Source of the DNA: Longimicrobiales bacterium
GTDB taxonomy: Bacteria; Gemmatimonadota; Gemmatimonadetes; Longimicrobiales; Gaopeijiaceae
Length of the DNA stretch: 64,000 nucleotides
Assembly (NCBI GenBank): GCA_965204735.1
Contig: OZ242008.1
Location: forward strand, 1,216,001-1,280,000
Direction: 5' to 3'
Both the position numbers and the translations under genes were made by a program. Every line of letters begins with the position of its first letter. Position 1 is the first letter of the stretch. The notes beneath the pieces were generated by a model. It made no database searches and had not been told where the DNA came from. It worked only from the letters and a program-made list of their open reading frames with translations. Positions 39,726-55,989 of the stretch are shown here, piece after piece.

Positions 39726-42700
39726 CTACCGCCGCCAAGCGGCCGGCGCGGGCACGCCGCGGCTCACCTGGACCTCCAGTCCCGGCTCTGGAAGCCCCCG
39801 CGCCCCGTCCGTCCCGGCTGGGCCGCGGACTCCCGAACCGGACCAGTCGCGCAGGATGCCGCGTACCCTGCCAGTGGCCGGGTCCCGCAGCAGTGCCGCC
39901 GCTGGGCCGGACTGCGCGTCCATGGCCACCGAGCCGTCTGGACCCGTCAGCACGATTCGCGACAGCGCGTCCGCCCAGCTCGACTCCGTCGGAAGCGCGA
40001 GCGCGAACGACTGTCGGCCGTCTCCGTCCGCCGTCTCGGCCATCTCGAAGCGCCGGGTGAAGAGCACGCGGCCGTCTTCGGCCTCGCCGGCGAGCTGCCA
40101 AGCACCGGTACCGTCCAGCGGGGTCGGCGGCGCTTCGACCACGAACGCCGGGTTCAGGAACGGGCGCCCGTCGGCGCCGGCACCGCCCCAGAGCAGAAGG
40201 GCGCGCACCGGCAGTGCGGCCCCGATTCCGGTTTCGTCCTGCAGGCGCCACCGCAACGCGTTTGCAAAGTGGTAGTCGCTGATTCCGCCCCAGTTGCAGT
40301 AACCCATCACGTCGCGAGCATTCGGAGGCACCAAGCTGCGGGAACGATGATCCCAGCCCCACGCACCACTGCGCCCTTTGGCGTGCGGATACCCAGGATC
40401 AGGGCCTCCTGCGCCTCCGCAGGGTGCATGCCATAGGTGCATGTTGTGTCCGAATTCGTGTGCAACGACCCCTCCGTCCGGTGTAGAAAACATGACTCGG
40501 CCGGGAACATACGCAACTCCACCCCCAACACCCCCCATGGTGCCCATGTAGTAGCCTGCTCCACCCTCCATGACCCGAATCGCTTCGGTCTCACCCAGCT
40601 GCCATCCCTTGGTAGAAGTCCAAACGGGCTCGTGAACGGTTACTCTCATGCGCCCCACGGGAAGCCAGCTGCGAGTCTCCTTGAAGAGTGGGGCCTCGGG
40701 CGAAAGACCCCGGGTCACGTTCAGAATCGACGAGTCCGGCACCGTCTCCCAAAGAAAAGGCACCACCGTCACGTCGAACGTCGGCATCTCGTACACGTCC
40801 AGCGTCGTCCGCCCTACCTCCGGGACACGTCGCGGGACGCCCAGCTGCGGGTCGAGCGCACCTTCCGGGTCCAACACCACCACGATCTCGACGCCCGGAC
40901 GCAACACTTCTCCCGGAACCGCGGCGTTCGTAGACAGGTCAAGGCTGCGTTCAGCCGCTTCGGTCTGCGCTGGTATCGCTCCAGTTCCCGGCGATAATGG
41001 AACGCTGTGCTTGGAACCGTCCTGCTGATAGAACGTCGCCACGCCAGATGGAACGCGCACACCTTCAGCATCTGGAGCCGCCACCAACACGCGCAGCAAC
41101 CCTGGCCTGCCCGCGACCAGCGGCACGGGAAAGTCCGGCGACTGGACCGTCTGCACGACGTACGCCGTGGCAGTCGCCAAGGCTGTTTCCGTCCGCGTCT
41201 CGCATATGCGAACGTACCGATTCCAGAACGACCTCATCTGCAACCGCGTGGCGAAATCGCCGCCAACACACAGCCTCGTGCCAGTCGCGCTGAGGGAGCT
41301 CAGTCGACGCCAGTTGGCTATTGGCAATAGTCCAACCAGGTCCGCATTGCCCGACAGGTACAGGTGCGTCAAGTTGGCCAAGCCGCCCAGCTCGCGAGGT
41401 ATCTCGCCCGTCAAGTCGTTGCCCGACAGGTACAGGTGCGTCAAGTTGGCCAAGCCGCCCAGCTCGCGAGGTATCTCGCCCGTCAAGTCGTTGCCCCCCA
41501 GGTGCAGCCAGTCCAAGTTGGCCAAGCCGCCCAGCTCGCGAGGTATCTCGCCCGTCAAGTCGTTGCCCGACAGGTACAGGTGCGTCAAGTTGGCCAAGCC
41601 GCCCAGCTCGCGAGGTATCTCGCCCGTCAAGTCGTTGCCCCCCAGGTGCAGCCAGTCCAAGTTGGCCAAGCCGCCCAGCTCGCGAGGTATCTCGCCCGTC
41701 AAGTCGTTGCTCCACAGGTGCAGCACCCTCAAGTTGGCCAAGCCGCCCAGCTCGCGAGGTATCTCGCCCGTCAAGTCGTTGCCCCACAGGAACAGCACCC
41801 TCAAGTTGGCCAAGCCGCCCAGCTCGCGAGGTATCTCGCCCGTCAAGTCGTTGCCCCCCAGGAACAGATCCCTCAAGTTGGCCAAGCCGCCCAGCTCGCG
41901 AGGTATCTCGCCCGTCAAGTCGTTGCCCCCCAGGTGCAGCCAGTCCAAGTTGGCCAAGCCGCCCAGCTCGCGAGGTATCTCGCCCGTCAAGTCGTTGCTC
42001 AACAGGTGCAGCTCCCTCAAGTTGGCCAAGCCGCCCAGCTCGCGAGGTATCTCGCCCGTCAAGTCGTTGCCCCACAGGTCCAGGCTTCTGACGCGACCAC
42101 TTGCGTCCGTTTCGACTCCGTGCCAAACGTCCAGCGGCACGTCGGTCAGCCAGTTGTCGCTCCTGCTCCAGTCTTGGCCGCCTGTCGCATAGAAGAATGT
42201 CTCGAGGATGTCGCGGTCCGTCAGCGGCGGGCACTCGGTGCCCGTGCCGGAATGCGAGCGGACTGATCGCAACCAGGCTCGGAATGCTGGATCGGCCGGT
42301 ATGCACACTTTCGTGCCCTCGTACGACAAAACCCGCAACGGCAACGCAGTCATTCCCGACGCAAGGCGACCGTTCAATCGGCCGTTGCCGCCGAGCCGCA
42401 ACTCCCGGAGTGCCCGAAGAGACGCCCAGTTTCCTGCGAGCACACCGGACAAGTCGTTAGCAGTCAAGTCAATGCCTACGACGCGGCCGGACAAGGAGTC
42501 CGTCTCTATACCGTACCAGTCAGCCAAGGGCCCCGGCTGAAGCCACCCACTGGATGATGCCCACTCGGAACCGCCAGTCGCGTGGTAGAATGAGCGAAGC
42601 GCCGCAGCCTCGGCCTCGTGGCAGAACGGCCCACGGCTTCGTTCAAGTCCTTGCACAAAGTCGATGAAGCTTCGCGTGCCAGGCGCACACAAGCCAGCAT

Positions 42701-43643
42701 TATCTGACCAGAACAAACCTCTCAGGACGCTTGAACGGGCTAGTTCGTGCGGTACCTCACCGCTCAAGTTGCTGTTGGTCACGGCTAGCCACTCCAAGTT
42801 GGCCAACTCACCCAGATCCGACGGGAGGCCGCCGGTGAAATCGTTGCCCTGCAAGTACATTTCTCTCAGACTGGTCAAACTGCCCAATTCTGATGGGACC
42901 TTACCAGTCAAATCGTTCAGGTACAGGTTTTCCAAGTTGGACAAGTTGCCCAGCTCTAGCGGGATCTCGCCGCCAGAGGTCGCGATGGCCAGGGAAATGA
43001 GCCTTGACAAGTTGCCCAATTCTGGTGGTATGTCGCCGCGAAAGTCGTTAAATTGCAGGGACAGCGTCGTCAAGTTGGACAAGTTGCCCAGTTCCCGAGG
43101 TATCGCTCCCGTCAGGTTGTTGTTGTTCAGATCCAGCGTCGTCAAGCTGGACAAGCCGCCCAGTTCCCGAGGTATCTCGCCGGTCAGGTTGTTGTCGCGC
43201 AGAGACAGCGTCGTCAAGCTGGACAAGCCGCCCAGTTCCCGAGGTATCTCGCCGGTCAGGTTGTTGTCGCGCAGAGACAGCGTCGTTAAGTTGGACAAGC
43301 CGCCCAGCTCCCGAGGTATCTCGCCCGTCAGGTTGTTGCCGGAAATCGTTAACTCTAGAACGTGACCACTTTCGGACGCCCTGACTCCGTGCCAAGTGTT
43401 CAGCGATGCGCCGGTCAGCCAGTTGTCGCTGTTGTCCCAGTCCGGGCCGTTAGTCGCCTCGTACAGAGCCACCAGCACGGCGCGGTCGCCAGCCGCCGTC
43501 GCGAAAGCGCTTGCGCCGCCGCCAGCCGGCGCGACCAGGGGCTCGGTCAGCTCGTCGTTGCAGGCCGTCGCCGCGAGCACGAAGGCGAATGCGGCAACCA
43601 CATGCTGGCGTGCAGTCTTGTTGTTGAGGATGTCGCGACGCAT
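39726..43643 (-). CDS. Large LRR lipoprotein with a C-terminal M66-like metallopeptidase
   Basis: AAGGAG plus ATG at 43643; ATAC lipobox; three LRR blocks with DRxxLxxxYxATxGxxW caps; HEFGHNMHLWHAPC. Confidence 0.88.
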   Translation of the reverse strand: MRRDILNNKTARQHVVAAFAFVLAATACNDELTEPLVAPAGGGASAFATAAGDRAVLVALYEATNGPDWDNSDNWLTGASLNTWHGVRASESGHVLELTISGNNLTGEIPRELGGLSNLTTLSLRDNNLTGEIPRELGGLSSLTTLSLRDNNLTGEIPRELGGLSSLTTLDLNNNNLTGAIPRELGNLSNLTTLSLQFNDFRGDIPPELGNLSRLISLAIATSGGEIPLELGNLSNLENLYLNDLTGKVPSELGSLTSLREMYLQGNDFTGGLPSDLGELANLEWLAVTNSNLSGEVPHELARSSVLRGLFWSDNAGLCAPGTRSFIDFVQGLERSRGPFCHEAEAAALRSFYHATGGSEWASSSGWLQPGPLADWYGIETDSLSGRVVGIDLTANDLSGVLAGNWASLRALRELRLGGNGRLNGRLASGMTALPLRVLSYEGTKVCIPADPAFRAWLRSVRSHSGTGTECPPLTDRDILETFFYATGGQDWSRSDNWLTDVPLDVWHGVETDASGRVRSLDLWGNDLTGEIPRELGGLANLRELHLLSNDLTGEIPRELGGLANLDWLHLGGNDLTGEIPRELGGLANLRDLFLGGNDLTGEIPRELGGLANLRVLFLWGNDLTGEIPRELGGLANLRVLHLWSNDLTGEIPRELGGLANLDWLHLGGNDLTGEIPRELGGLANLTHLYLSGNDLTGEIPRELGGLANLDWLHLGGNDLTGEIPRELGGLANLTHLYLSGNDLTGEIPRELGGLANLTHLYLSGNADLVGLLPIANWRRLSSLSATGTRLCVGGDFATRLQMRSFWNRYVRICETRTETALATATAYVVQTVQSPDFPVPLVAGRPGLLRVLVAAPDAEGVRVPSGVATFYQQDGSKHSVPLSPGTGAIPAQTEAAERSLDLSTNAAVPGEVLRPGVEIVVVLDPEGALDPQLGVPRRVPEVGRTTLDVYEMPTFDVTVVPFLWETVPDSSILNVTRGLSPEAPLFKETRSWLPVGRMRVTVHEPVWTSTKGWQLGETEAIRVMEGGAGYYMGTMGGVGGGVAYVPGRVMFSTPDGGVVAHEFGHNMHLWHAPCGGAGGPDPGYPHAKGRSGAWGWDHRSRSLVPPNARDVMGYCNWGGISDYHFANALRWRLQDETGIGAALPVRALLLWGGAGADGRPFLNPAFVVEAPPTPLDGTGAWQLAGEAEDGRVLFTRRFEMAETADGDGRQSFALALPTESSWADALSRIVLTGPDGSVAMDAQSGPAAALLRDPATGRVRGILRDWSGSGVRGPAGTDGARGLPEPGLEVQVSRGVPAPAAWRR
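41349..42089. repeat. 72 bp LRR array: ten copies of an invariant 51 bp scaffold alternating with 21 bp variable segments
   Basis: Scaffold copies start at 41370 + 72n (n = 0 to 9). Confidence 0.97.
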
Positions 43644-43675
43644 GGCCGTTCTCCTTGGTTTCCTTGCCGGCCGTC

Positions 43676-45475
43676 TCATTGCGGCCGTCGGCTCCCGATC
43701 AGCATGAACTCTCCCGACGACCGGCACAGCGTCGGCCGCGACGATGTGCCCGGGCTCGGCCACGAACGTCCCGGGCACGCGCTCGCTGCACTCGGCTGGG
43801 AGTTTCCAGCGACCGGCCGGAACTCGATTCGGCCGGCCGGCCTGACAACGGCGACAAGGACTGGTGCCGGCGCTTCGGAGCCCGATCCGCCGGGCCGTTG
43901 CGCGACCACCGGTCCCGCTGCCCGGAGGCCGCCCGCTGCAAGAACCCTCACCTTGATCGCCGACGAACAATTGTTGCCCGTGTTCGCCTCCCCCTCCACC
44001 GCGGCCACGCACTCGCCCACCCACAACACGGTCCCCGGCGACGCCGACCGCCTCACGGTCATCGAGGCAATCCCCTGCACCGCCTCGCCCGGGCCGAGGA
44101 CCGGCACGCGAGTGACCTGGCCCACCGGGTCGTCCGACGTCGTGACCACGGAATCGGTCGACAGGAACGCGCCCACCGTCGTCGCAACCGACGCCGCGGC
44201 GCCACGGTTCCGTATTTCCACGACGTACTTGAAGCTGCCCCCCGGAGCGACCACCACGCTGTCCGGCGACACACCCGCCACTAGGTCCGGCCGGCCGGTC
44301 ACCTTCACCTTGATCGCCACCGAACAGTTGTTTCCCGTGTCCGATTCCCCCTCCACCGCGTCCATGCACTCGCCCACCCACAACACCGTCCCCGGCGACA
44401 ACGACGCGCCCACCGTGAACGTCGCGACCCTGCTCGCCGACTCGCCCGCGCCCAGCTCCGGCACGTCCGACGCCTCCCCCACCTCCTCGTCCGACATCGT
44501 GACCACCGAGTCCGGCGACGCGAGCATCCTCGCTTTCGTCGCAGCCGCCGGGCCAGCACCTCGGTTCTGGATTGCCACCACGTACTCGAAGCCGCCCCCA
44601 GGCGCGACCGACACGCTGTCCGGCCACGAACTCACATAGGACAAGTCCGGCCGGCCCGTCACCGTCACCTTGATCGACTCCGAGCAGTTGTTGCCCGTGT
44701 CCGTCTCCCACTGCACCGGGTCGACGCACTCGCCTACATAGAGGACCGTGCCCAGCTCCGCCGCCGAACTCACCGTGAACGAGCCCGTCCTGCTTGCCGA
44801 CTCGCCCGGACCCAGGCTGGGCACGGGGGCCGGGACACCCACCACTTCGTCCGAGGTCGTGATCACGTTGTCGGCCGACACGAACGTTCTCGCTCGGGTC
44901 GCTGCCGCCGTCGTGTCACCCCGGTTGCGTACAATGGCCACGTATTCGAAGCTGCCCCCCGCCCAAGTCGCCGCGTTGCCGGGCGACAGGCTCGCAATCA
45001 AGTCCGGCAGGACCGCGACCGCCGTCGCCCGGACCTCGGTCGACACGCCTTCCCGTACCGTTGCCGCCAGCACTTGCTCGCCGACCGAGTCGCCCAGCGT
45101 CCATGTCGTGGCCGCGAGCCCGGCCGAATTGCTTCTTGTCGCCCACGGATCGGCTGCGCCGTGGCCCTCCGTCGGCACGAACGTGACCGTCGCACCCGCC
45201 ACTGGCGAACCGCCCGCGTCCAAGAGCCGCACGACGACGGGCTCCCGAAGCGGCTCGCCGACTCGGGCCCACTGGTCGGCGCCCGCAAACGGCTCCACTA
45301 CCGCGGTCGCTCCTCCGTCCGGACCCGTGCCCGAGTCGCCCCCGCAAGCGGCAAGCCCCGATGCGACGACGGTAACCGCCAGAGATGGCCACTTGCCACG
45401 ACTTGGGCCATGTCGGCTTGGCTCCAAGGCGGCAAGCCCGCGCTCCGGCTTCCGCAGGACACCGACCGCCTGCAT
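43676..45475 (-). CDS. Lipoprotein with an Ig-like domain and three CARDB domains, paralog of 28238-31057 without the peptidase (possibly truncated)
   Basis: GLAAC lipobox; near-identical N-terminal DNA to the other copy; low-complexity tail. Confidence 0.75.
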   Translation of the reverse strand: MQAVGVLRKPERGLAALEPSRHGPSRGKWPSLAVTVVASGLAACGGDSGTGPDGGATAVVEPFAGADQWARVGEPLREPVVVRLLDAGGSPVAGATVTFVPTEGHGAADPWATRSNSAGLAATTWTLGDSVGEQVLAATVREGVSTEVRATAVAVLPDLIASLSPGNAATWAGGSFEYVAIVRNRGDTTAAATRARTFVSADNVITTSDEVVGVPAPVPSLGPGESASRTGSFTVSSAAELGTVLYVGECVDPVQWETDTGNNCSESIKVTVTGRPDLSYVSSWPDSVSVAPGGGFEYVVAIQNRGAGPAAATKARMLASPDSVVTMSDEEVGEASDVPELGAGESASRVATFTVGASLSPGTVLWVGECMDAVEGESDTGNNCSVAIKVKVTGRPDLVAGVSPDSVVVAPGGSFKYVVEIRNRGAAASVATTVGAFLSTDSVVTTSDDPVGQVTRVPVLGPGEAVQGIASMTVRRSASPGTVLWVGECVAAVEGEANTGNNCSSAIKVRVLAAGGLRAAGPVVAQRPGGSGSEAPAPVLVAVVRPAGRIEFRPVAGNSQPSAASACPGRSWPSPGTSSRPTLCRSSGEFMLIGSRRPQ

Positions 45476-46987: not shown

Positions 46988-47842
46988 TCACACCAGATAC
47001 CCGCCGTCCACCGGCACCACTGCGCCGGTGACGTGGCGCGCCGCCTCCGAGCAGAGGAAGAGGATCACCGACGCCACGTCCTGGGGGTCGCCCAGGCGGC
47101 CGAGGACGCTGCGCTCCCGGGCCCGGTCCATGATCTCGGCGGGCACCCGCTCGGTGAGCTCGGTGGTGCGGATGTAGCCGGGCGCGACGGCGTTCACGTT
47201 GACGTTGGACGGGCCCAGCTCGGCGGCGGCGCTCCGGGTGAGGCCGAAGAGTCCCGCCTTCGAGGAGCAGTAGTTGGCCAGGCCGAACTCGCTGGAAAGT
47301 CCGTGGACCGACGACACGTTGACGATCTTGCCGAACTCCTGGGCGCGGAAGTGGGGCGCCGCGGCCCGGGTGAAGTAGAAGGCGCCCGACAAGTTGGTGT
47401 CGATCACGGTCCGCCACTCGTCGTCGTCCATCCGCCAGAGGGCGCTGTCCCGACCCACGCCGGCGTTGTTCACCAGGAAGTGGAGGCCGCCCAGCACGGC
47501 CCGGGCCTCGCCGACGAACTCGGTCGCCTCCGCCGGGTCCCGCACGTCGCCGGGCCGCGAGAAGACCTCGACGCCGCACTCGCGCAGCTCGCTCTCCACC
47601 TCGTCGGCCACCCCCCGGCTCGCCGACCCCCGGTCCAGGTAGTTGAAGGCGACGTGGGCGCCGGCCCGGGCGAAGGCGGTCGCCGTGGCGCGGCCGATCC
47701 CGCTCGATGCGCCCGTCACCAGCGCCACCCGCCCCCGCAGCGACGGGTCCGACGCCGCCGGCTCGGGCGCCGGACGGGGAACCGGCCCGGTCAGCGCGTC
47801 GGCCGCCCCCACGGCCTCCACGGCGTCGCCGCTCGTCCTCAC
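46988..47842 (-). CDS. SDR oxidoreductase (FabG-like)
   Basis: TGASSGIG, NNAG, YCSSK and VDGG motifs. Confidence 0.92.
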   Translation of the reverse strand: MRTSGDAVEAVGAADALTGPVPRPAPEPAASDPSLRGRVALVTGASSGIGRATATAFARAGAHVAFNYLDRGSASRGVADEVESELRECGVEVFSRPGDVRDPAEATEFVGEARAVLGGLHFLVNNAGVGRDSALWRMDDDEWRTVIDTNLSGAFYFTRAAAPHFRAQEFGKIVNVSSVHGLSSEFGLANYCSSKAGLFGLTRSAAAELGPSNVNVNAVAPGYIRTTELTERVPAEIMDRARERSVLGRLGDPQDVASVILFLCSEAARHVTGAVVPVDGGYLV

Positions 47843-48522
47843 CGGCCGCCGCCCGGCTTGGCGTGCTTGATCGACTTGGCCTCGACGAGGAACACCACGT
47901 CCTCCGCGATGTTGGTCGCCAAGTCTCCGATCCGCTCCAGGTTCTGGACCACCAGGATCATCTCCAGGCCCGGGCTGATGTAGCGGGGCTGCTCCAGCAT
48001 GTACGACACGACGATCCGGAAGGCGGAACGCCGCAAGTCGTCCACTCGCTCGTCCGCCGCCACGACGCGACGGGCGACGGCGACGTCCCGGTTCACCAGC
48101 GCGCCCAGCGCGTCGTCCAGCATCGCCAGCGCCTGGTCGCCCATCTCCCGCACCTCCAGGATGTCCGGCAGCGGAGGGTGAGATGCGATCCGCTTCGTCG
48201 CCTTGGCGATGTTCACCGCGTGGTCGCCGATCCGCTCGATGTCGTTGGACGCCTTCAAGGTGACGAACGCCTGCCGCAAGTCGCCCGCGACGGGTCTCTG
48301 AAGCGCCAGGAACTCCAGCACCCGCTCGTCGATCTCCACTTCCAGGGCGTCGATCCCGTCGTCGGAGCGCCTGACCTGCTTCGAGCGGGTCGGGTCGCGT
48401 TCCGCCAAGCCGGTCATCGCCAGCCGCACGAGCTCCTCCGCCCGTCCCGCCATCTCCAGCAGCATCTCGCGGAGGCGGTCCAGCTCGGCTTCGGCCCGGC
48501 TCCTGGGGGGCGGCTCGTTCAT
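47839..48522 (-). CDS. phoU: Phosphate signalling complex protein PhoU
   Basis: QRPVAGDLR, DIERIGDHA and LERIGDLATNIAE motifs. Confidence 0.95.
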   Translation of the reverse strand: MNEPPPRSRAEAELDRLREMLLEMAGRAEELVRLAMTGLAERDPTRSKQVRRSDDGIDALEVEIDERVLEFLALQRPVAGDLRQAFVTLKASNDIERIGDHAVNIAKATKRIASHPPLPDILEVREMGDQALAMLDDALGALVNRDVAVARRVVAADERVDDLRRSAFRIVVSYMLEQPRYISPGLEMILVVQNLERIGDLATNIAEDVVFLVEAKSIKHAKPGGGR

Positions 48523-48538: not shown

Positions 48539-49354
48539 TCATGCGGGTCTCCCGGTCAGGTAGGACTCGGTGCGCTCGTCCCGAGGGTTGGTGAAGAGGG
48601 TCTCGGTGAGGCCGTACTCGACCAGCTCGCCCCCGTCCAGGTACGCGGTCAGGTCGGAGAGGCGGGCGGCCTGCTGCAGGTCGTGGGTGGCGATGACCAC
48701 GGTGTAGGCGCCCTTGAGGGCGTGGACCAGGGCCTCGATCCGGGCCGTGGCCGCCGGGTCCAGCGCCGACGTGGGCTCGTCCATGAGAAGCACGCTGGGC
48801 TTGACCGCAAGCGTCCGGGCAATGCAGAGCCGCTGCTGCTGACCCGCCGAGAGCCCCAGCGCCGGGGCGTCCAGGTCGCCGGCGACCTCCGGCCACAGGC
48901 CCGCCGCCGAGAGGACTTCCTCGACCAAGGCGTGCAGGTCTCCGTCGAAGCCGCCGGCCCGGGGTCCGAAGGCCACGTTGTCGAAGACGGAAGCGGGGAA
49001 GGGGGTCGGCTGCTGAAGCACCATGCCGATCCTCCGGCGCACCGCCACGGGGTCCACGTGGGCGGCGTAGAGGTCGAGTCCCTCGAAGCGGACTGCGCCC
49101 GTGGTGCGCGCGCCCTGCACCAGTTCGTTCATGCGGTTGAAGCAACGGAGAAGAGTGGTCTTGCCGCAACCGGACGGGCCAATGACGGACACGATCCGGC
49201 CCGGAGGGACCTCCAGGGTGACGTTCGACAGCGCGGTCCGCCCGTCGAAGCTCACCGAGAGGCCGTCGGCGGAGAGGACGGGACCGGAAGCGGCGCCGGG
49301 GTCGCCGGGCGGCCGGACGGGGGCCTTGTCGGGGCCGGAAGCCTGGAGGGTCAC
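48539..49354 (-). CDS. pstB: Phosphate ABC transporter ATPase
   Basis: GPSGCGKT, FNRMNE, LSAGQQQRLCIAR and DEPTSALDP motifs. Confidence 0.93.
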   Translation of the reverse strand: MTLQASGPDKAPVRPPGDPGAASGPVLSADGLSVSFDGRTALSNVTLEVPPGRIVSVIGPSGCGKTTLLRCFNRMNELVQGARTTGAVRFEGLDLYAAHVDPVAVRRRIGMVLQQPTPFPASVFDNVAFGPRAGGFDGDLHALVEEVLSAAGLWPEVAGDLDAPALGLSAGQQQRLCIARTLAVKPSVLLMDEPTSALDPAATARIEALVHALKGAYTVVIATHDLQQAARLSDLTAYLDGGELVEYGLTETLFTNPRDERTESYLTGRPA

Positions 49355-50193
49355 GGGCGCGCCGTCGGCATCCGCCGGCGCAGGGCCAGGACGGTCAGGT
49401 TGGCCGCCAGGAGGAGCAGCAGAAGGGCGATCGCGGCGCCGGCGGCCAGCGCGCCGAACTCGGGCTGGGAGCGGGCCGTCCAGTCGAAGATGCGGGTCGG
49501 CAGGGAGACGAGCGGATCGCCGGGCGCCGTGGGCGCGAAGGTGACGAAGGACGCGGCGCCGATCACCAGCAGCGGCGCCGCCTCGCCCACCGTGCGGGTG
49601 AAGGCGAGGCAGGCGCCGGCCGCCACCCCGGGCGCCGCCGCCGGGAGGACTTGGTGGCGCACGACCTGCCAGCGGGTCGCGCCCAGCCCGTACGCCGCGT
49701 GCCGAAGGCTCTCCGGAACGGATCGGATCGCGCCTTGCGAGGTGGCGACCACGGCCGGGAGGGCCAGCGTGGCCAGGGTGAGCCCGCCGGCCAAGATGCT
49801 CCGTCCCGCCCCCATCGCGTGAACGAAGACGGCGAGCCCCGCGACCCCGTACACCACCGACGGCACCGCCGCCATGCTTGCGGCCAGCGACCCGCCAAGG
49901 GCCGACCATCGGTTTCTGGGCGCGTACTCCTCCAGGTAGACGGCGGCGCCGACTCCCACGGGAAGCGCGAAGAGGACCGTGAGGAGGGCCAGCCAGAGCG
50001 TGCCCGCCAGCGCGGGGCCGATCCCGGCGCGGCTCGGGTCTCGAGAGGGCGGGGACGCGAAGAAGGCCGGGTCCAGCGCCTCCCAGCCGCGCGCCGCCAG
50101 GACGCCCGCCAGCAGCGCCAGGCCGGCGGCGGCGGTCCAGGCGCCCGCGCCGCACGCCGTCCCGGCCTTGCCGTGGCGACGGAAGAACTTCAC
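49351..50193 (-). CDS. pstA: Phosphate ABC transporter permease
   Basis: AVYLEEY, VPSVVYG, AYGLGATRWQ and GEAAPL motifs; GTGA coupling. Confidence 0.9.
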   Translation of the reverse strand: MKFFRRHGKAGTACGAGAWTAAAGLALLAGVLAARGWEALDPAFFASPPSRDPSRAGIGPALAGTLWLALLTVLFALPVGVGAAVYLEEYAPRNRWSALGGSLAASMAAVPSVVYGVAGLAVFVHAMGAGRSILAGGLTLATLALPAVVATSQGAIRSVPESLRHAAYGLGATRWQVVRHQVLPAAAPGVAAGACLAFTRTVGEAAPLLVIGAASFVTFAPTAPGDPLVSLPTRIFDWTARSQPEFGALAAGAAIALLLLLLAANLTVLALRRRMPTARP

Positions 50194-51242
50194 GGGTGCA
50201 GGGCCCCCAAGCGGGCGGCGGCTCCCGGGCCTGCGCCGAAGCCTCGACGGCGGCCGAAGCCTCGACGGCCGCGGGGGGACGGACCGGGCCGTCGGGAGAG
50301 GAGCGCCCTGCCCGCCGCATGGGTTCCGAAGGCGAGAAGGAAGAGGACCGCCGCGGCGGCGAAGACGGCCCGGTAGGCCAGCGTGCCCGGCGCGGCGTCG
50401 CCCATGTTCATCTGGGCGATGAAGGTGGTGAGGGTCCGGAGCCCTTCCAGGGGACTCCACGCCAGACGGGCCTGGTTGCCCGCGGCCATCGTCACGATCA
50501 TCGTCTCGCCGGCGCCCCGGGCCAGGGCGAGAACGACGGCCGCCGCGATCCCCCGGCCCGCGGCCGGCGCGACGACGCGGGCCAGGACCCGGCCCCGGCT
50601 CGCGCCCAGCGCCAGTCCCGCCTCGAGCAGCGAGCGGGGAACCGAGTCCAGCGCCTGCCGCGACACCACCGCCACCGTAGGCAGGATCATGAGCCCGACC
50701 ACCAGGCACGCGGCCAAGCCGTTGAAGGGCTCGACGGTGGGCCAGACGCGCCGGAGCGCGGGCGTGACGAACTCAAGGGCGAGGTAGCCCAGCACCACGG
50801 TGGGCACGCCGGACAGCAGAGTCACCGACGCGGACAGGAAGCGCTCCGTCCGAGCGCCGGCGTAGTAGGCAAGGTAGGCGGCGGTGGCCAGACCGGCGGG
50901 CGCGGCGAAGAGCGCGGCCCCGGCGGCGACCTGCGCCGTGGCGGCCAGCAGGGGGAGCACGCCGAAGCGAGGCTCCTCTGCGAACGGCGCCCACGAGCCT
51001 TCGGTCAGGAACCGCGCCAGAGGGACCTCGGCAAAGAACGACGCCGTCTGCCGGGCCAGCGCCCAGACGACCGTGGCGAAGGCCGCGGCCGCCACCAGGG
51101 CGCATGCGGCGAACGCCCACCGGGCCAGCCGCTCGCCGAGCGCGCGGGACGCCGTGGCCGCCCCCGAGAAGCCGTCGAGGTTGGCCCCGGGGCCGGACTT
51201 CGTCGGAGAGCCGGTCGGCGTCGAGGCGCCCGCGAGCCTCAC
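50190..51242 (-). CDS. pstC: Phosphate ABC transporter permease
   Basis: FLTEGSWAP...FGVLPL, GVPTVVLG and RGAGETMIV motifs; GTGA coupling. Confidence 0.9.
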   Translation of the reverse strand: MRLAGASTPTGSPTKSGPGANLDGFSGAATASRALGERLARWAFAACALVAAAAFATVVWALARQTASFFAEVPLARFLTEGSWAPFAEEPRFGVLPLLAATAQVAAGAALFAAPAGLATAAYLAYYAGARTERFLSASVTLLSGVPTVVLGYLALEFVTPALRRVWPTVEPFNGLAACLVVGLMILPTVAVVSRQALDSVPRSLLEAGLALGASRGRVLARVVAPAAGRGIAAAVVLALARGAGETMIVTMAAGNQARLAWSPLEGLRTLTTFIAQMNMGDAAPGTLAYRAVFAAAAVLFLLAFGTHAAGRALLSRRPGPSPRGRRGFGRRRGFGAGPGAAARLGALHP

Positions 51243-53923
51243 CAAGCCGTCCGCTCCAGCAGAGCTTCGCTCCGGGCGTGCTCGCCGGCGGGGAGGGGGA
51301 CGTACCCGGCCTCTGCGGCGAGCGCCTGGCCCGCCGCGACGAAGAACGAAGCGAACTCGCGGACCGCCGGCCGCGCCAGGGCGGCTTGGCGGACGTAGAT
51401 GTAGAGGTCGCGCACCAGCGGACTGTAGCGACCGTCGGCAAGGGACTCGCGGGACGGGAGCACGCAGCCGAAGCCCGCGTCCACCGCCACGGCCTTGAGC
51501 GCCCCTCGGTTGGCCTGGTAGTGGGCGTAGCCGAAGTATCCCAGCGCCCACCGGTGCCCGGCCACGCCCCGAGCCACCAAGTGGTCGCTTTCGGTCTGAT
51601 GGTAGTCGGCGCGGCTGGCGCCCGTCCGGCCCGCCACCACCCTGGTGAAGAAGTCGAAGGTGCCCGAGTCGGGACCCGGACCGTAGAGGCGCACTTTCTC
51701 GGCGGGCAGGCCGGGACGCAGGTCGCGCCAAGTGGCCACGCGGCTCGACGGCGCCCAGACGCGCTCCAGCTCGTCCAGCGTCAGGCACTCCACGCCGTGG
51801 TTGCCCGGGTTGACCACCACCGTCAAGCCGTCCCGGGCGACGGGAAGCGCCAGGTAGCGGGCGTCGGTCCTCCGGCAGCGAGCTTCCTCCTCCTCCGTCA
51901 TGAGGCGCGAGGCGCCCGCCACGTCCACTTCGCCCTCGCAGAGCCGCCTGAAGCCGCCTCCCGAGCCCGAGAGGCTCACCGCCACGCGATGCTCGGGGCT
52001 GCGGCGCGCAAACTCCTCCGCCACCGCTTCCGCCAGCGGACCGAGAGTGCTCGACCCTCCGACGGCCACCGCTCGCCCAGGGTCGCCGCTCCCGCCGGGC
52101 GCGCACGCCAGGAGCAGAGCGACGGCCAGACCGGCGCCCGCGGCGACCCCGCGAGCCGCCGGGCGACCGGCTTCCTCGCCGCCCGCCGTTCCCTCCAGCG
52201 GCAAGGTGAAGCCGATCGTCGTGCCCGCGCCCAGCGCGCTCTGCGCAGAGACTTCGCCCCCCATGCTGGAGACCAGGTGTCGGACGATGGCCAGTCCCAG
52301 TCCCGTGCCGCCGCCCGGTCGGGAGCGGGCCGCGTCGATCCGATAGAAGCGCTCGAAGATGCGCGGCAGCGCGGACGCGGGGATGCCGGCCCCGTTGTCG
52401 CGCACGGCGATCCGCAGCCGTTCGTCCTCCTCGTCGATCTCCACGCGGACCCGGCCGCCCTTGTCGGGGACGTGCTTCATGGCGTTCTCGAAGAGGTTGC
52501 GAAGCACCTGATACACCGCCTGTTCGTCCCCCGACGCCACCCCGTCTCCCGAGACGCTGAACTTCACCCCGCGGGCCGCGGCTTCGTCCTCCATCTCCTC
52601 CCAGACGGACCACGCGACTTCGCCGACGAGCACCGGCGCGTGCTGGGGGCGCCAAGCGCCCGACTCGTACCGGGAAAGGTCCAGCAAGTCGTCCACCATG
52701 CGCTGCAGCCGCACGGTGTTGCGCCCGATGGACCGAAGGAACTGGCTGCGAAGCTCCGGGGGCACGTCTTCCTCCAAGACCGTCTCGGCCGCGACGCGAA
52801 TGACGGTCAGCGGCGTCTTCAGCTCGTGGGAAGCGTTGGCCACGAAGTCGGAGCGCACCTCCTCCAGTCGGCGAAGCTCCGTCACGTCCACCAGGACGGC
52901 CACGGACTCCCCCTCCGACCCCCGAGTGGTGCGCACGTCCAGCTTCCGCCCGCCCAGATCGATCTCCAGGCGGCCCTCGCGCCGGTCCACCGACTTCTCG
53001 AGCAAGTCGCGGAGGACCGGGTCCCGCACGACCGAGCCCACGGGGGCCAGCCTGGGCACGTCCGCTACGCCGAGCAGCTTCTTCGCCGCCGGGTTGATGC
53101 GCAGGATGCGGGCGTCGGCGGTGAGCGCCACCAGCCCCTCCGCCACCCGGTCCACCAGCCCCGCCAGCTCGTCCCGCTCCCGAGCGGCCCGCGCGGACTG
53201 CACGTCCAGCTGGGTTCGCGCCCGGTTCGCCGCCGAAGCCGTGCGGGCAAGCTCGGCCACGGGCGAGAGCGGCGCCCTGGGACCGGCAGGCCGCCCGGCG
53301 CCGACGCCCGAGAGCAGGCCGCCCACGGCGTTCAGCGACCGGACGACGCCTCCGAGGAACCAGTGCAGCGCCGCGATCGAGACGACGGCGGCGGCCAGCA
53401 CGGCCAGGGCCGCGTTGCGCGCCGCCCGCGCCGCAGCCTCCTCGACGGGCTCGGCCGGGGCGCCGAAGCGGACCACGACGGTCTCGCCGCGCCAGTACGC
53501 CCGGGCCGCGGCGAAGACGTAGGGACGCCCGTCCACCTCCCCCGCGCGCCGGGAGAACGTCACCGCCCGGGCGTCTCGAAGCGCCTCTTCCACTTCGGGG
53601 CGCTGCGTCCCGCCCGCGGCCTCCAGCGCTTCCGCGCCGTCGGCGAGCTGCGGATCCGCCACCAGCTTCATGTCGCCGTCGAAGACGCTGGTCCGGTACC
53701 GGGTCGTGGCGGCCAAGGCGCTGGCCACGCTGTCCAGGGCGAGGTCCTGGGACGCCCGCAGCCGTTCGGCCCCCAGCCGCACCGCGCGGCCCAGGTGCTC
53801 CCGGACCTCCTCCGTCAGGGCCCGCTCGGTGGTGGCGCGGGTCGCCGCCCAGGCCGCCGCCGCCGCGAGCACGGCCGCCCCGGCCGCTCCCGCCAGGGCG
53901 GCAGGCCGCAGCGCAACCCTCAC
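51239..53923 (-). CDS. PhoR-like sensor histidine kinase fused in frame to a C-terminal PstS phosphate-binding domain
   Basis: DFVANASHELKTPLT, NLFENA, FERFYR and GTGLGL, then LLAC, GSSTL, GSGGGF, DSGTFDFF and GYFGYAHY with no stop between. Confidence 0.9.
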   Translation of the reverse strand: MRVALRPAALAGAAGAAVLAAAAAWAATRATTERALTEEVREHLGRAVRLGAERLRASQDLALDSVASALAATTRYRTSVFDGDMKLVADPQLADGAEALEAAGGTQRPEVEEALRDARAVTFSRRAGEVDGRPYVFAAARAYWRGETVVVRFGAPAEPVEEAAARAARNAALAVLAAAVVSIAALHWFLGGVVRSLNAVGGLLSGVGAGRPAGPRAPLSPVAELARTASAANRARTQLDVQSARAARERDELAGLVDRVAEGLVALTADARILRINPAAKKLLGVADVPRLAPVGSVVRDPVLRDLLEKSVDRREGRLEIDLGGRKLDVRTTRGSEGESVAVLVDVTELRRLEEVRSDFVANASHELKTPLTVIRVAAETVLEEDVPPELRSQFLRSIGRNTVRLQRMVDDLLDLSRYESGAWRPQHAPVLVGEVAWSVWEEMEDEAAARGVKFSVSGDGVASGDEQAVYQVLRNLFENAMKHVPDKGGRVRVEIDEEDERLRIAVRDNGAGIPASALPRIFERFYRIDAARSRPGGGTGLGLAIVRHLVSSMGGEVSAQSALGAGTTIGFTLPLEGTAGGEEAGRPAARGVAAGAGLAVALLLACAPGGSGDPGRAVAVGGSSTLGPLAEAVAEEFARRSPEHRVAVSLSGSGGGFRRLCEGEVDVAGASRLMTEEEEARCRRTDARYLALPVARDGLTVVVNPGNHGVECLTLDELERVWAPSSRVATWRDLRPGLPAEKVRLYGPGPDSGTFDFFTRVVAGRTGASRADYHQTESDHLVARGVAGHRWALGYFGYAHYQANRGALKAVAVDAGFGCVLPSRESLADGRYSPLVRDLYIYVRQAALARPAVREFASFFVAAGQALAAEAGYVPLPAGEHARSEALLERTAW

Positions 53924-53956: not shown

Positions 53957-54706
53957 CTACCGTCCTCGGAACCGATACCCGAACCCTCGGACCGTCTCGA
54001 TCCAGCCGCCCGCCTCGCCCAGCTTGGCGCGCAGGCGGCGAACGTGCATGTCCACGGTTCGGGTTCCGCGCCTGCCGCCCAGCCGGTGCTTCGCGTCCTG
54101 GTCCCAGGCTTCGCCCAGGAGCTCTCGGCGGCTCTGGGTCCGCCCCCGGCGCTCCATCAGCGTCTTCAGCAGCCGGAACTCGGTCGGCGTGAGCTGGACG
54201 CGCTTTCCATCCACCGTGACGGCGTTCGACCCCAGGTCGACCCTGAGAGGACCCCTGGAGAGGACGCGGGCGCCGGCCGCGGGCGCCACCCCCTCGCCCT
54301 GGGCCCGTCGCAGGATCGCCTCGATCCGGAGCATCAGCTCTCGGGAGCTGAAGGGCTTGGAAAGGTAGTCGTCCGCTCCCAGCTCCAGTCCCTCGATCCG
54401 GTCGTCGCGGTCGTCCTTGGCGGTGAGCATCAGCACGGGCAAGCCCTTGGTCGCGGGCTCTTCCCGGATCGCCCGGAGCACGTCGTCGCCCGACGCGCCG
54501 GGAAGCATCCGGTCGAGCACCACGAAGTCGGGGATCTCGCGGCGGAGCGAGAAGAGCCCCTCGACGCCGTCGGCCGCCGTCTCCACCCGATACCCGGCCT
54601 TGGCGAGCTGGTAGGCGACGAGACCGGCGATCTCCGCGTCGTCCTCGACCACCAGCACTCGGGACCGGGGCTTGGGCACGCGGGCGCGGGCGATGCCGCC
54701 GCTCAC
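53957..54706 (-). CDS. phoB: OmpR/PhoB family response regulator
   Basis: VVEDD, LDRMLP, GADDYLSKPF, RTVDMHVRRLR and TVRGFGY motifs; pho operon context. Confidence 0.88.
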   Translation of the reverse strand: MSGGIARARVPKPRSRVLVVEDDAEIAGLVAYQLAKAGYRVETAADGVEGLFSLRREIPDFVVLDRMLPGASGDDVLRAIREEPATKGLPVLMLTAKDDRDDRIEGLELGADDYLSKPFSSRELMLRIEAILRRAQGEGVAPAAGARVLSRGPLRVDLGSNAVTVDGKRVQLTPTEFRLLKTLMERRGRTQSRRELLGEAWDQDAKHRLGGRRGTRTVDMHVRRLRAKLGEAGGWIETVRGFGYRFRGR

Positions 54707-55989
54707 TTGGCCGGCTTCCCGCTCGCGGCCCCGCTCGCCTTCGCCACGGCCAGCACTTCCGCCTCCGACAGTGTGTGGTCCGCCGACTTGGCCTTCTGCA
54801 GGACGCGGGCGGCCAGATCCGGGTGGCTCGGGTCGTACCCCCGCTTCGCGAGCCAGTACTTGACGTTGGAAAGCCCCGACATCGGGCCGATCTCGATCTG
54901 CTGACGACGGCCCACCATCGAGGCGGGCACGCTGGAGTACACCCGGTCCGCGAGCCAGCGGGCCCCCTTCGCTTCGGCCTTGACGATGGCGGCCGCGTGG
55001 ACGCCGGTGGCGGTGCGGAAGGCGTCGGCGCCCAGGACGGGGTAGTTGGGCGGAAGAGGCACGCCGCACTCCTGCGCGACAAGCTCGCAGTACTCGGCCA
55101 GGCGGGTCAGGTCGGCGTCGTGAACGCCGGCCATGGCCAAGTTCACCAGCAGCAGGTCCATCTCGACGTTGCCCACCCGCTCGCCGATTCCCATCGCCGT
55201 GCCATGGATCCGGTCGGCGCCGGCGTCGATCGCGGCCAGGGCGCCGGCCAAGCCCAGTCCCCGGTCTCGGTGGCCGTGCCAGTCGAGCTTCACGTTGGCG
55301 CCCGAGGGATCGACGATCTCGCGGCGGACGAAGCGGATCAGCGCTCGAACGCCCGACGGCGTGGCGTGGCCCACGGTGTCCGAGAGGCAGATCCGCCGGG
55401 CGCCCCACTCGATGGCGTGTCCGTAGAGCGCCTTCAGCGTCTCGGGGTCGGCCCGGGTGGTGTCCTCGGTGACGAACATGACCGGCAGCCCCTCCTTCAC
55501 GCAGAACTCCACCGACTCCTCGGCCGTCCGCAGCATCGTGTCCAGCGACCAGTCCTCGGCGTAGAGGCGGATCGGGGAGCTGCCGATGAACACGCACACC
55601 TCCAGGCGAACGCCCGTCTTCTGGGAGATGCGGGCGGCGGGCTCCACGTCGGCCAAGACGGTGCGTGCGGCGCAGTTGGGCGCCACCGCCAGTCGCGAGT
55701 CGCGGATCTCCTCGCAGAGGCGCGTCACGTCGTTCACGGCCCGGGGGCCCGCGCCGGGAAGCCCCACGTCGGCCGCGTGTATGCCGAGCTCGGCCATGAT
55801 GTGGAGCAGGCGGACCTTGGCCTCGATGGGAGGGTCGGTCACCGAGGGCGACTGGAGGCCGTCGCGCAGCGTCTCGTCGTCCAGCTCCACGTGGCGGCCC
55901 CACGACAGCGTGTCGAACTCGGCGACGTTCCAGTCGTGGATCAGCCCTTGGTGCTCGAGCCCCTCGGGCTCCGCTTCGCCGTGCTTCAT
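54703..55989 (-). CDS. LeuA-family (DRE-TIM) 2-isopropylmalate/homocitrate synthase-like enzyme, short form
   Basis: DETLRDGLQ, HGHRDRG and GIGERVGN motifs; no C-terminal regulatory domain. Confidence 0.85.
   Translation of the reverse strand: MKHGEAEPEGLEHQGLIHDWNVAEFDTLSWGRHVELDDETLRDGLQSPSVTDPPIEAKVRLLHIMAELGIHAADVGLPGAGPRAVNDVTRLCEEIRDSRLAVAPNCAARTVLADVEPAARISQKTGVRLEVCVFIGSSPIRLYAEDWSLDTMLRTAEESVEFCVKEGLPVMFVTEDTTRADPETLKALYGHAIEWGARRICLSDTVGHATPSGVRALIRFVRREIVDPSGANVKLDWHGHRDRGLGLAGALAAIDAGADRIHGTAMGIGERVGNVEMDLLLVNLAMAGVHDADLTRLAEYCELVAQECGVPLPPNYPVLGADAFRTATGVHAAAIVKAEAKGARWLADRVYSSVPASMVGRRQQIEIGPMSGLSNVKYWLAKRGYDPSHPDLAARVLQKAKSADHTLSEAEVLAVAKASGAASGKPAK

Follow-up and report, generated by a model that had tools for sequence, protein, structure and literature searches.

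The open reading frame (ORF) at positions 51239..53923 of the minus strand in a 64,000-nucleotide stretch of a Longimicrobiales genome (contig OZ242008.1, positions 1,216,001 to 1,280,000; hereafter the window) encodes the phosphate sensor kinase PhoR and the phosphate-binding protein PstS as a single stop-free polypeptide of 894 residues, starting at a GTG codon. The fusion is real: the single 894-residue frame is confirmed in independent sequence data. At a probability of roughly 0.6, the features of its joint lead us to favour a reading in which the product is a precursor, lipidated by Lgt at Cys607 and cut there by LspA, which would yield PhoR and a lipoprotein PstS in a 1:1 ratio and leave ordinary PhoU-mediated signalling in place. 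An earlier note on this DNA had described the fused frame, without a stop at the linker, and had left two options side by side: a polyprotein cut at the internal Cys, which is the one we favour, and a kinase tethered to PstS, which now appears less likely.

The frame begins with a predicted transmembrane helix (TM1, approximately residues 7-27, 53843..53905; all features of the ORF are on the minus strand), followed by a predicted extracytoplasmic domain (approximately residues 28-168, 53420..53842; weak Pfam match, E 0.038) and a second predicted helix (TM2, approximately residues 171-191, 53351..53413), both helices being called from hydropathy. The kinase part continues with a PAS-like region (residues 255-296, 53036..53161), a HisKA domain found by Pfam and containing His366 and Thr370 (residues 357-422, 52658..52855) and a HATPase_c domain with intact N, G1, F and G2 boxes (residues 465-577, 52193..52531). 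An acidic, Gly-rich and variable cytoplasmic linker (residues 578-586, 52166..52192) then leads into an internal lipoprotein-type signal (52106..52165), made up of Arg587 and Arg591, an h-region and lipobox positions -3 to -1. Hydropathy marks a third hydrophobic stretch here, at approximately residues 592-607, which ends at Cys607 (52103..52105), the predicted site of lipidation and cleavage. The predicted mature PstS (residues 607-894, 51242..52105) contains a PBP_like_2 domain at residues 615-863, passes the PstS model TIGR02136 (224.3 against a cut-off of 206.6) and resembles a solved phosphate-binding protein (PDB code 4jwo, E 3e-72). Hydropathy, Pfam and TIGR02136 thus agree with the domain order read earlier from the letters, with one correction: Pfam finds no HAMP domain in the fused protein. 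The PAS-like part is a weak PAS_8 match under the cut-off (E 0.004).

Because the fused protein misses the cut-offs of the curated PhoR equivalog models (TIGR02966, 253 against 334; NF046044, 281 against 400), the name PhoR is taken from context: the kinase part is encoded together with phoB, pstSCAB and phoU. At this locus PstS does not exist as a separate gene with its own N-terminal signal. Both halves are well preserved: His366 and Thr370 are invariant in 24/24 fused proteins, and across the same set the kinase motifs, the Ser, Arg and Ser-Gly-Thr motifs of PstS and four PstS cysteines are invariant or nearly so. Four invariant cysteines would fit an exported domain.

Frameshift artefacts that join phoR and pstS do exist in databases: P0037 and P0282, candidate fusions from our protein searches, each have their own pstS start and were rejected on these grounds. 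For the ORF in the window, the chance that a sequencing or assembly error explains the joined genes is negligible, and for this genus such an error is refuted. The window lies in a genome (G000) assembled as one 4.14 Mb contig that is 98% complete. Among four sequencing runs containing this DNA, contigs of three, from three studies, cross the ORF from end to end without a gap, differing by 0, 10 and 17 substitutions, as the earlier note had proposed checking at the junction (one of the runs compared, X1, may be the source of the sequence itself), and the fourth run holds gap-free pieces of the fused ORF. These runs include sponge and marine metagenomes, and the fusion-bearing genus is marine and sponge-associated. 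The genes phoR and pstS are fused, and all seven genes of the operon intact, in 4/4 genomes of the genus (G000 and G001-G003), and 12/13 members of the 90% cluster of the ORF are 894 residues long.

The search of relatives suggested earlier for this architecture found it in 22 protein clusters (23 were listed in the protein search, P0037 being dropped). The P0032/P0165 fusion, whose cluster also has unfused members, could reflect a homopolymer error and is scored as an uncertain case among the origins of the fusion. Among the best 150 matches in a library of 50% representatives, four have both domains (P0008 and P0038, as well as the artefacts P0037 and P0282); fusions with distant PstS subfamilies could rank below these 150. 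In a 401-genome sample of the phylum, full-length stop-free fusions among the 150 matches listed (222 weaker ones exist besides) are those of G000 and G193. A scan of GTDB added only G003, a scan of JGI metagenomes returned no further fused locus, and the protein-search matches listed include no fusion outside Gemmatimonadota-like sequences. ESM Atlas returned plain kinase clusters only, a result that says nothing on novelty. The search matches also included many tandem two- and three-domain PstS proteins, as well as an unrelated 780-residue protein (P0412) in which a lipobox-like N-terminus and ankyrin repeats precede a C-terminal PstS domain.

The joint between the two proteins has the layout of a lipoprotein signal, situated at residues 587-607 rather than at an N-terminus. 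The textbook lipobox is [LV][ASTVI][GAS]C, according to the accessible portions of PMC8048626 and PMC9360617. Here Arg587 and Arg591, 15 uncharged residues, Leu at -3, Ala at -1 and Cys at +1 all match, whereas the Leu at -2 of the lipobox reported in the earlier note lies outside the textbook set. From the end of HATPase_c to the Cys there are 31 residues in this ORF and 25-126 across 51 distinct fused junctions, where the intervening sequence is often acidic and repetitive; a small residue ([G/A]) followed by Cys is nevertheless kept at 51/51 of them. Our junction script sought precisely a small residue and Cys pair, and it reported no junction lacking one. Within the genus clade (16 proteins in two subclades), positions -2, -1, +1 and +3 show no changes in either subclade and positions -16 to -3 show 1-5 changes each. 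The uncharged stretch has not grown longer after fusion (median 15 residues in fused proteins and 14 in unfused ones, p 0.23).

The enzymes that such a joint would require are encoded: lgt and lspA are present in the genome. The gene lnt was not found in the whole genome with TIGR00546 or PF20154, and its lipoproteins may lack N-acylation or acquire it by another route; lolA gave a partial match only. A genome scan for internal lipoboxes with no nearby start codon, relaxed after a stricter version had missed its positive control, returned two matches: the phoR-pstS ORF and a second fusion, of an FtsX/MacB permease with a CrtC/Lipocalin_9 domain (locus L312, G000:C1:3280-7344, minus strand, 1354 residues), which has its internal lipobox at the joint. 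G002 and G003 carry this second fusion too; it was not detected in any of G001, G193 and G180. The same architecture occurs in 45/46 database matches, and the lipobox is kept in 23/23 close clusters. The script identified a lipobox in 8/23 distant matches, some of them doubtful; most of the others, including that of Prosthecobacter fusiformis, have an internal signal of the Ala-x-Ala type, as read by eye. If the precursors are cleaved, a peptidase motif should be kept at the joint, as is seen in these two unrelated fusions.

The history of the locus was examined in related genomes. Separate phoR and pstS genes are the rule in most other genera of the family, and 14/19 loci from other genera have a direct repeat with 11-bp spacing, resembling a Pho box, between the two. 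A stop at the junction and a separate pstS start, which the earlier note had set against its own proposal, are therefore the normal state in other genera but are not seen in this genus. In the clade formed by three related genera (g1, g66 and g61), the repeat is found at the phoR-pstS junction in 1/51 genomes, and in 36/43 unfused genomes the stop of phoR overlaps the start of pstS by four bases. Among 52 genomes of these genera, 8/51 phoR-pstS junctions are fused, in 4-5 lineages, while the remaining five operon junctions are fused in 1/250 cases. That single case is G164 (locus L048), in which a single frame of 666 codons holds pstC and pstA, with a short repeat where they join; being known from one genome, it may be an error.

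In a PhoR tree with 146 rows, the fused state must change seven times, at least six of these changes being forced by strong branches, and grouping the fused sequences into one clade is rejected on a 31-row subset (p-AU, from the approximately unbiased test, 2.6e-104). A single origin is thus rejected. Parsimony on this tree does not distinguish gains from losses, and as the outgroups are unfused the simple reading is some five to seven separate origins, most of them where overlap of the two genes and loss of the Pho box had come first. One origin, P0038 (9 members), has its nearest neighbours in another order, among whose listed loci none is fused. The unfused P0040 falls inside the genus clade, so in this genus the fusion was either gained twice or gained once and lost once.

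The window contains no other pstS, as had been noted, but the genome does: a second operon, pstS2-C-A-B-B (locus L268, G000:C1:2900086-2904391, minus strand), encodes a stand-alone lipoprotein PstS preceded by a strong Shine-Dalgarno match. An orthologue of pstS2 is present in 53/55 other genomes of the clade. Pho-box-like repeats occur upstream of pstS2 at 29/30 loci, compared with 0/30 coding controls, and before 0/42 phoB genes of the clade. The distribution of these repeats suggests that the pstS2 operon likely handles bulk, inducible phosphate uptake. The phoR-linked Pst is likely a low-level sensing copy, probably constitutive, since the fusion fixes one PstS per PhoR and its operon has lost the Pho box. 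With no further need to induce PstS1 far above PhoR, translational coupling and then fusion would have come at little cost, and the product, once exported, would be split again by the lipoprotein pathway. Two points count against this division of labour: no pstS2 was detected in G001 and G374, which are 92% and 93% complete, and the Pho-box motif was derived from these loci themselves rather than from PhoB binding. Elsewhere in the genome, a perfect Pho-box-like repeat precedes three ORFs (G000:C1:3816770-3822582, plus strand) which by eye encode a long outer-membrane-receptor-like protein, a putative lipoprotein and a second PhoB-like regulator, the last being 58% identical to the PhoB of the window.

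We considered how the fused product might function. In the cleaved-precursor reading, TM1 and TM2 would leave the kinase on the cytoplasmic side, PstS would be exported by the third hydrophobic stretch acting as an internal signal, and Lgt would lipidate Cys607 before LspA cuts in front of it. A short membrane tail would stay on PhoR, and phosphate would be sensed the usual way, via PstSCAB and PhoU; direct signalling through the third helix is unlikely. This reading is favoured because the lipobox is invariant while the linker varies five-fold in length, because lgt and lspA are present and because a second fusion has the same kind of joint. Several observations pull the other way. Conservation at -1 is partly by construction, because the script chose a Cys that follows G, A or S; Leu at -2 departs from the textbook set, although unfused relatives deviate equally; and the kept Cys is also compatible with lipidation without cleavage. 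Furthermore, the h-regions of fused signals are slightly more hydrophobic than those of unfused ones (Kyte-Doolittle 1.84 and 1.61) and their n-regions less positive (+1 and +2), in rows that are not independent; this shift could be drift towards a permanent anchor. If so, the protein would stay whole, as a three-helix kinase whose periplasmic, tethered PstS, lipidated or not, feeds PstCAB and perhaps touches the periplasmic domain of PhoR, so that phosphate binding is read more directly. The topology predicted from hydropathy is coherent with such a tether, the fusion recurs, and solute-binding proteins activate other kinases via their periplasmic domains (as described in the available part of PMC8050422). 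We nonetheless judge it unlikely: a plain anchor does not need the lipobox that is kept invariant, transmitting a conformational signal to the kinase through 25-126 disordered residues seems implausible, and separate overlapping genes suffice in sister species.

Still less probable, in our assessment, is that the phoR stop was merely lost and that most PstS is made from an internal start, which would keep the lipobox under selection for a separate PstS and leave the PhoR tail incidental. Most fused genomes do have in-frame codons that could serve, some of them with Shine-Dalgarno-like matches, and these codons too weigh against a precursor: an ATG within HATPase_c (Met554) in 8/8 fused genomes, a nearby GTG with a match of -8.9 in 5/8 though absent here, and strong matches at a linker ACG in G001 and a linker GTG in G002. 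A GTG at -19 is kept in G193 and G400. However, 7.7% of random positions score -7 or better, and the candidate positions are not conserved: no linker start codon is shared across the fused genomes, the linker of G390 has none, and P0024 and the P0021 cluster lack Met, Val and Leu altogether from the residue after HATPase_c to the basic n-region. In our ORF there is no in-frame ATG or GTG between the end of HATPase_c and Cys607, as the earlier note had observed, and its TTG574, CTG576 and ACG579 lack a Shine-Dalgarno match (-1.7 to -2.4 kcal/mol); ACG579 scores -5.2 with a window one base wider, and this codon is replaced by one for Pro in P0002 of the same cluster. Moreover, PhoR can be made only as the 894-residue product, so its tail must still be cut or kept. 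Finally, the fusion could be a sign that the operon is dispensable and in decay, which the cell would tolerate because phosphate uptake is secured by the second pst operon. PstS1 is indeed less conserved between genera (median 59.6%) than PstS2 (about 69-79%), and a few g66 genomes have no PstS1 match, but the intact operons of the genus and the near-invariant motifs and cysteines of the 24 fused proteins make decay very improbable.

The operon of the window, all on the minus strand, has the order phoB - phoR-pstS - pstC - pstA - pstB - phoU. The GTG of phoB (53957..54706) overlaps the stop of an upstream gene for an HMGL-like enzyme (54703-55989, minus strand), and the GTG of pstC (50190..51242) overlaps the stop of the fusion, confirming the GTGA coupling described previously. 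There follow pstA (49351..50193), pstB (48539..49354) and phoU (47839..48522; TIGR02135 over the cut-off), the last coupled in turn by GTGA to an unrelated gene for a short-chain dehydrogenase/reductase (46988-47842, minus strand). The GTGA couplings on both flanks of the pho operon, to neighbours unrelated to it, suggest a long shared transcript. Further downstream, a long ORF (39726-44729, minus strand) reads by eye as a tandem series of numerous leucine-rich-repeat-like units with a metallopeptidase-like motif at the C-terminus.

Natural precursors that combine a membrane protein and an exported protein around an internal signal sequence have a precedent in FbcH of Bradyrhizobium japonicum, a cytochrome b-c1 polyprotein cut by signal peptidase I. 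Of the marks of that case, one ORF and an internal signal are observed here, and two mature products are predicted; the present joint differs in being a lipobox, the substrate of Lgt and LspA, in following a large cytoplasmic kinase and in having several origins. Internalised prolipoprotein signals, likewise situated inside a longer chain, were reportedly engineered by Hayashi et al. in 1985 and Coleman et al. in 1985, whereas the signal described here is natural, conserved and preceded by about 590 residues. In BvgS/EvgS-type kinases, a fused binding domain lies N-terminal, before the membrane helix and the kinase. These proteins and the kinases activated by solute-binding proteins, such as LuxP-LuxQ, TorT-TorS and HptA-HptS (named in the same part of PMC8050422), resemble the fusion in linking a periplasmic binding protein to a sensor kinase. 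In all of them the binding protein either forms the N-terminal sensor domain itself or acts upon it, whereas here PBP_like_2 (615-863) lies C-terminal to HATPase_c, behind a flexible linker and a cleavable-looking signal.

The pstSCAB and PhoR-PhoB components have been noted in the phylum (in the accessible text of PMC10581226). The operon has the same seven components as an Escherichia coli-type Pho system, including a PhoR with PAS-like, HisKA and HATPase parts, and the route through PhoU and PstSCAB by which PhoR signals in that system (as outlined in the open portion of PMC4423584) is likely used here too. It departs from that type in having PhoR and PstS in one frame and no Pho box before pstS, the repeats being found at the second pst operon. 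A literature search covering mostly freely readable text returned no description of PhoR fused to PstS, nor of any internal lipobox in a natural protein. The locus is a variant of the Pho system whose predicted mode of processing is probably novel.

By definition, and in the software that predicts them, lipoprotein signals are N-terminal. Yet two natural fusions in one genome keep an internal lipobox, and one of them arose several times. Should LspA prove to cut them, lipoprotein polyproteins occur in nature and go unnoticed by annotation pipelines; the distant permease fusions include a named, testable species, Prosthecobacter fusiformis. We put forward tentatively, as a proposal whose chances we rate somewhat short of even, that internal lipoprotein signals are a general, repeatedly evolved device for Lgt/LspA cleavage of polyproteins, seen in PhoR-PstS and permease-lipocalin fusions, and that in these symbionts the device hard-wires a 1:1 PhoR:PstS sensing complex apart from the inducible uptake transporter. 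The clade appears to divide the work of Pst between two copies, one locked to PhoR for sensing and the other inducible for uptake. It thereby offers a natural system for asking how much Pst, and which state of Pst, PhoR must read, with fused and unfused sister alleles as ready-made controls.

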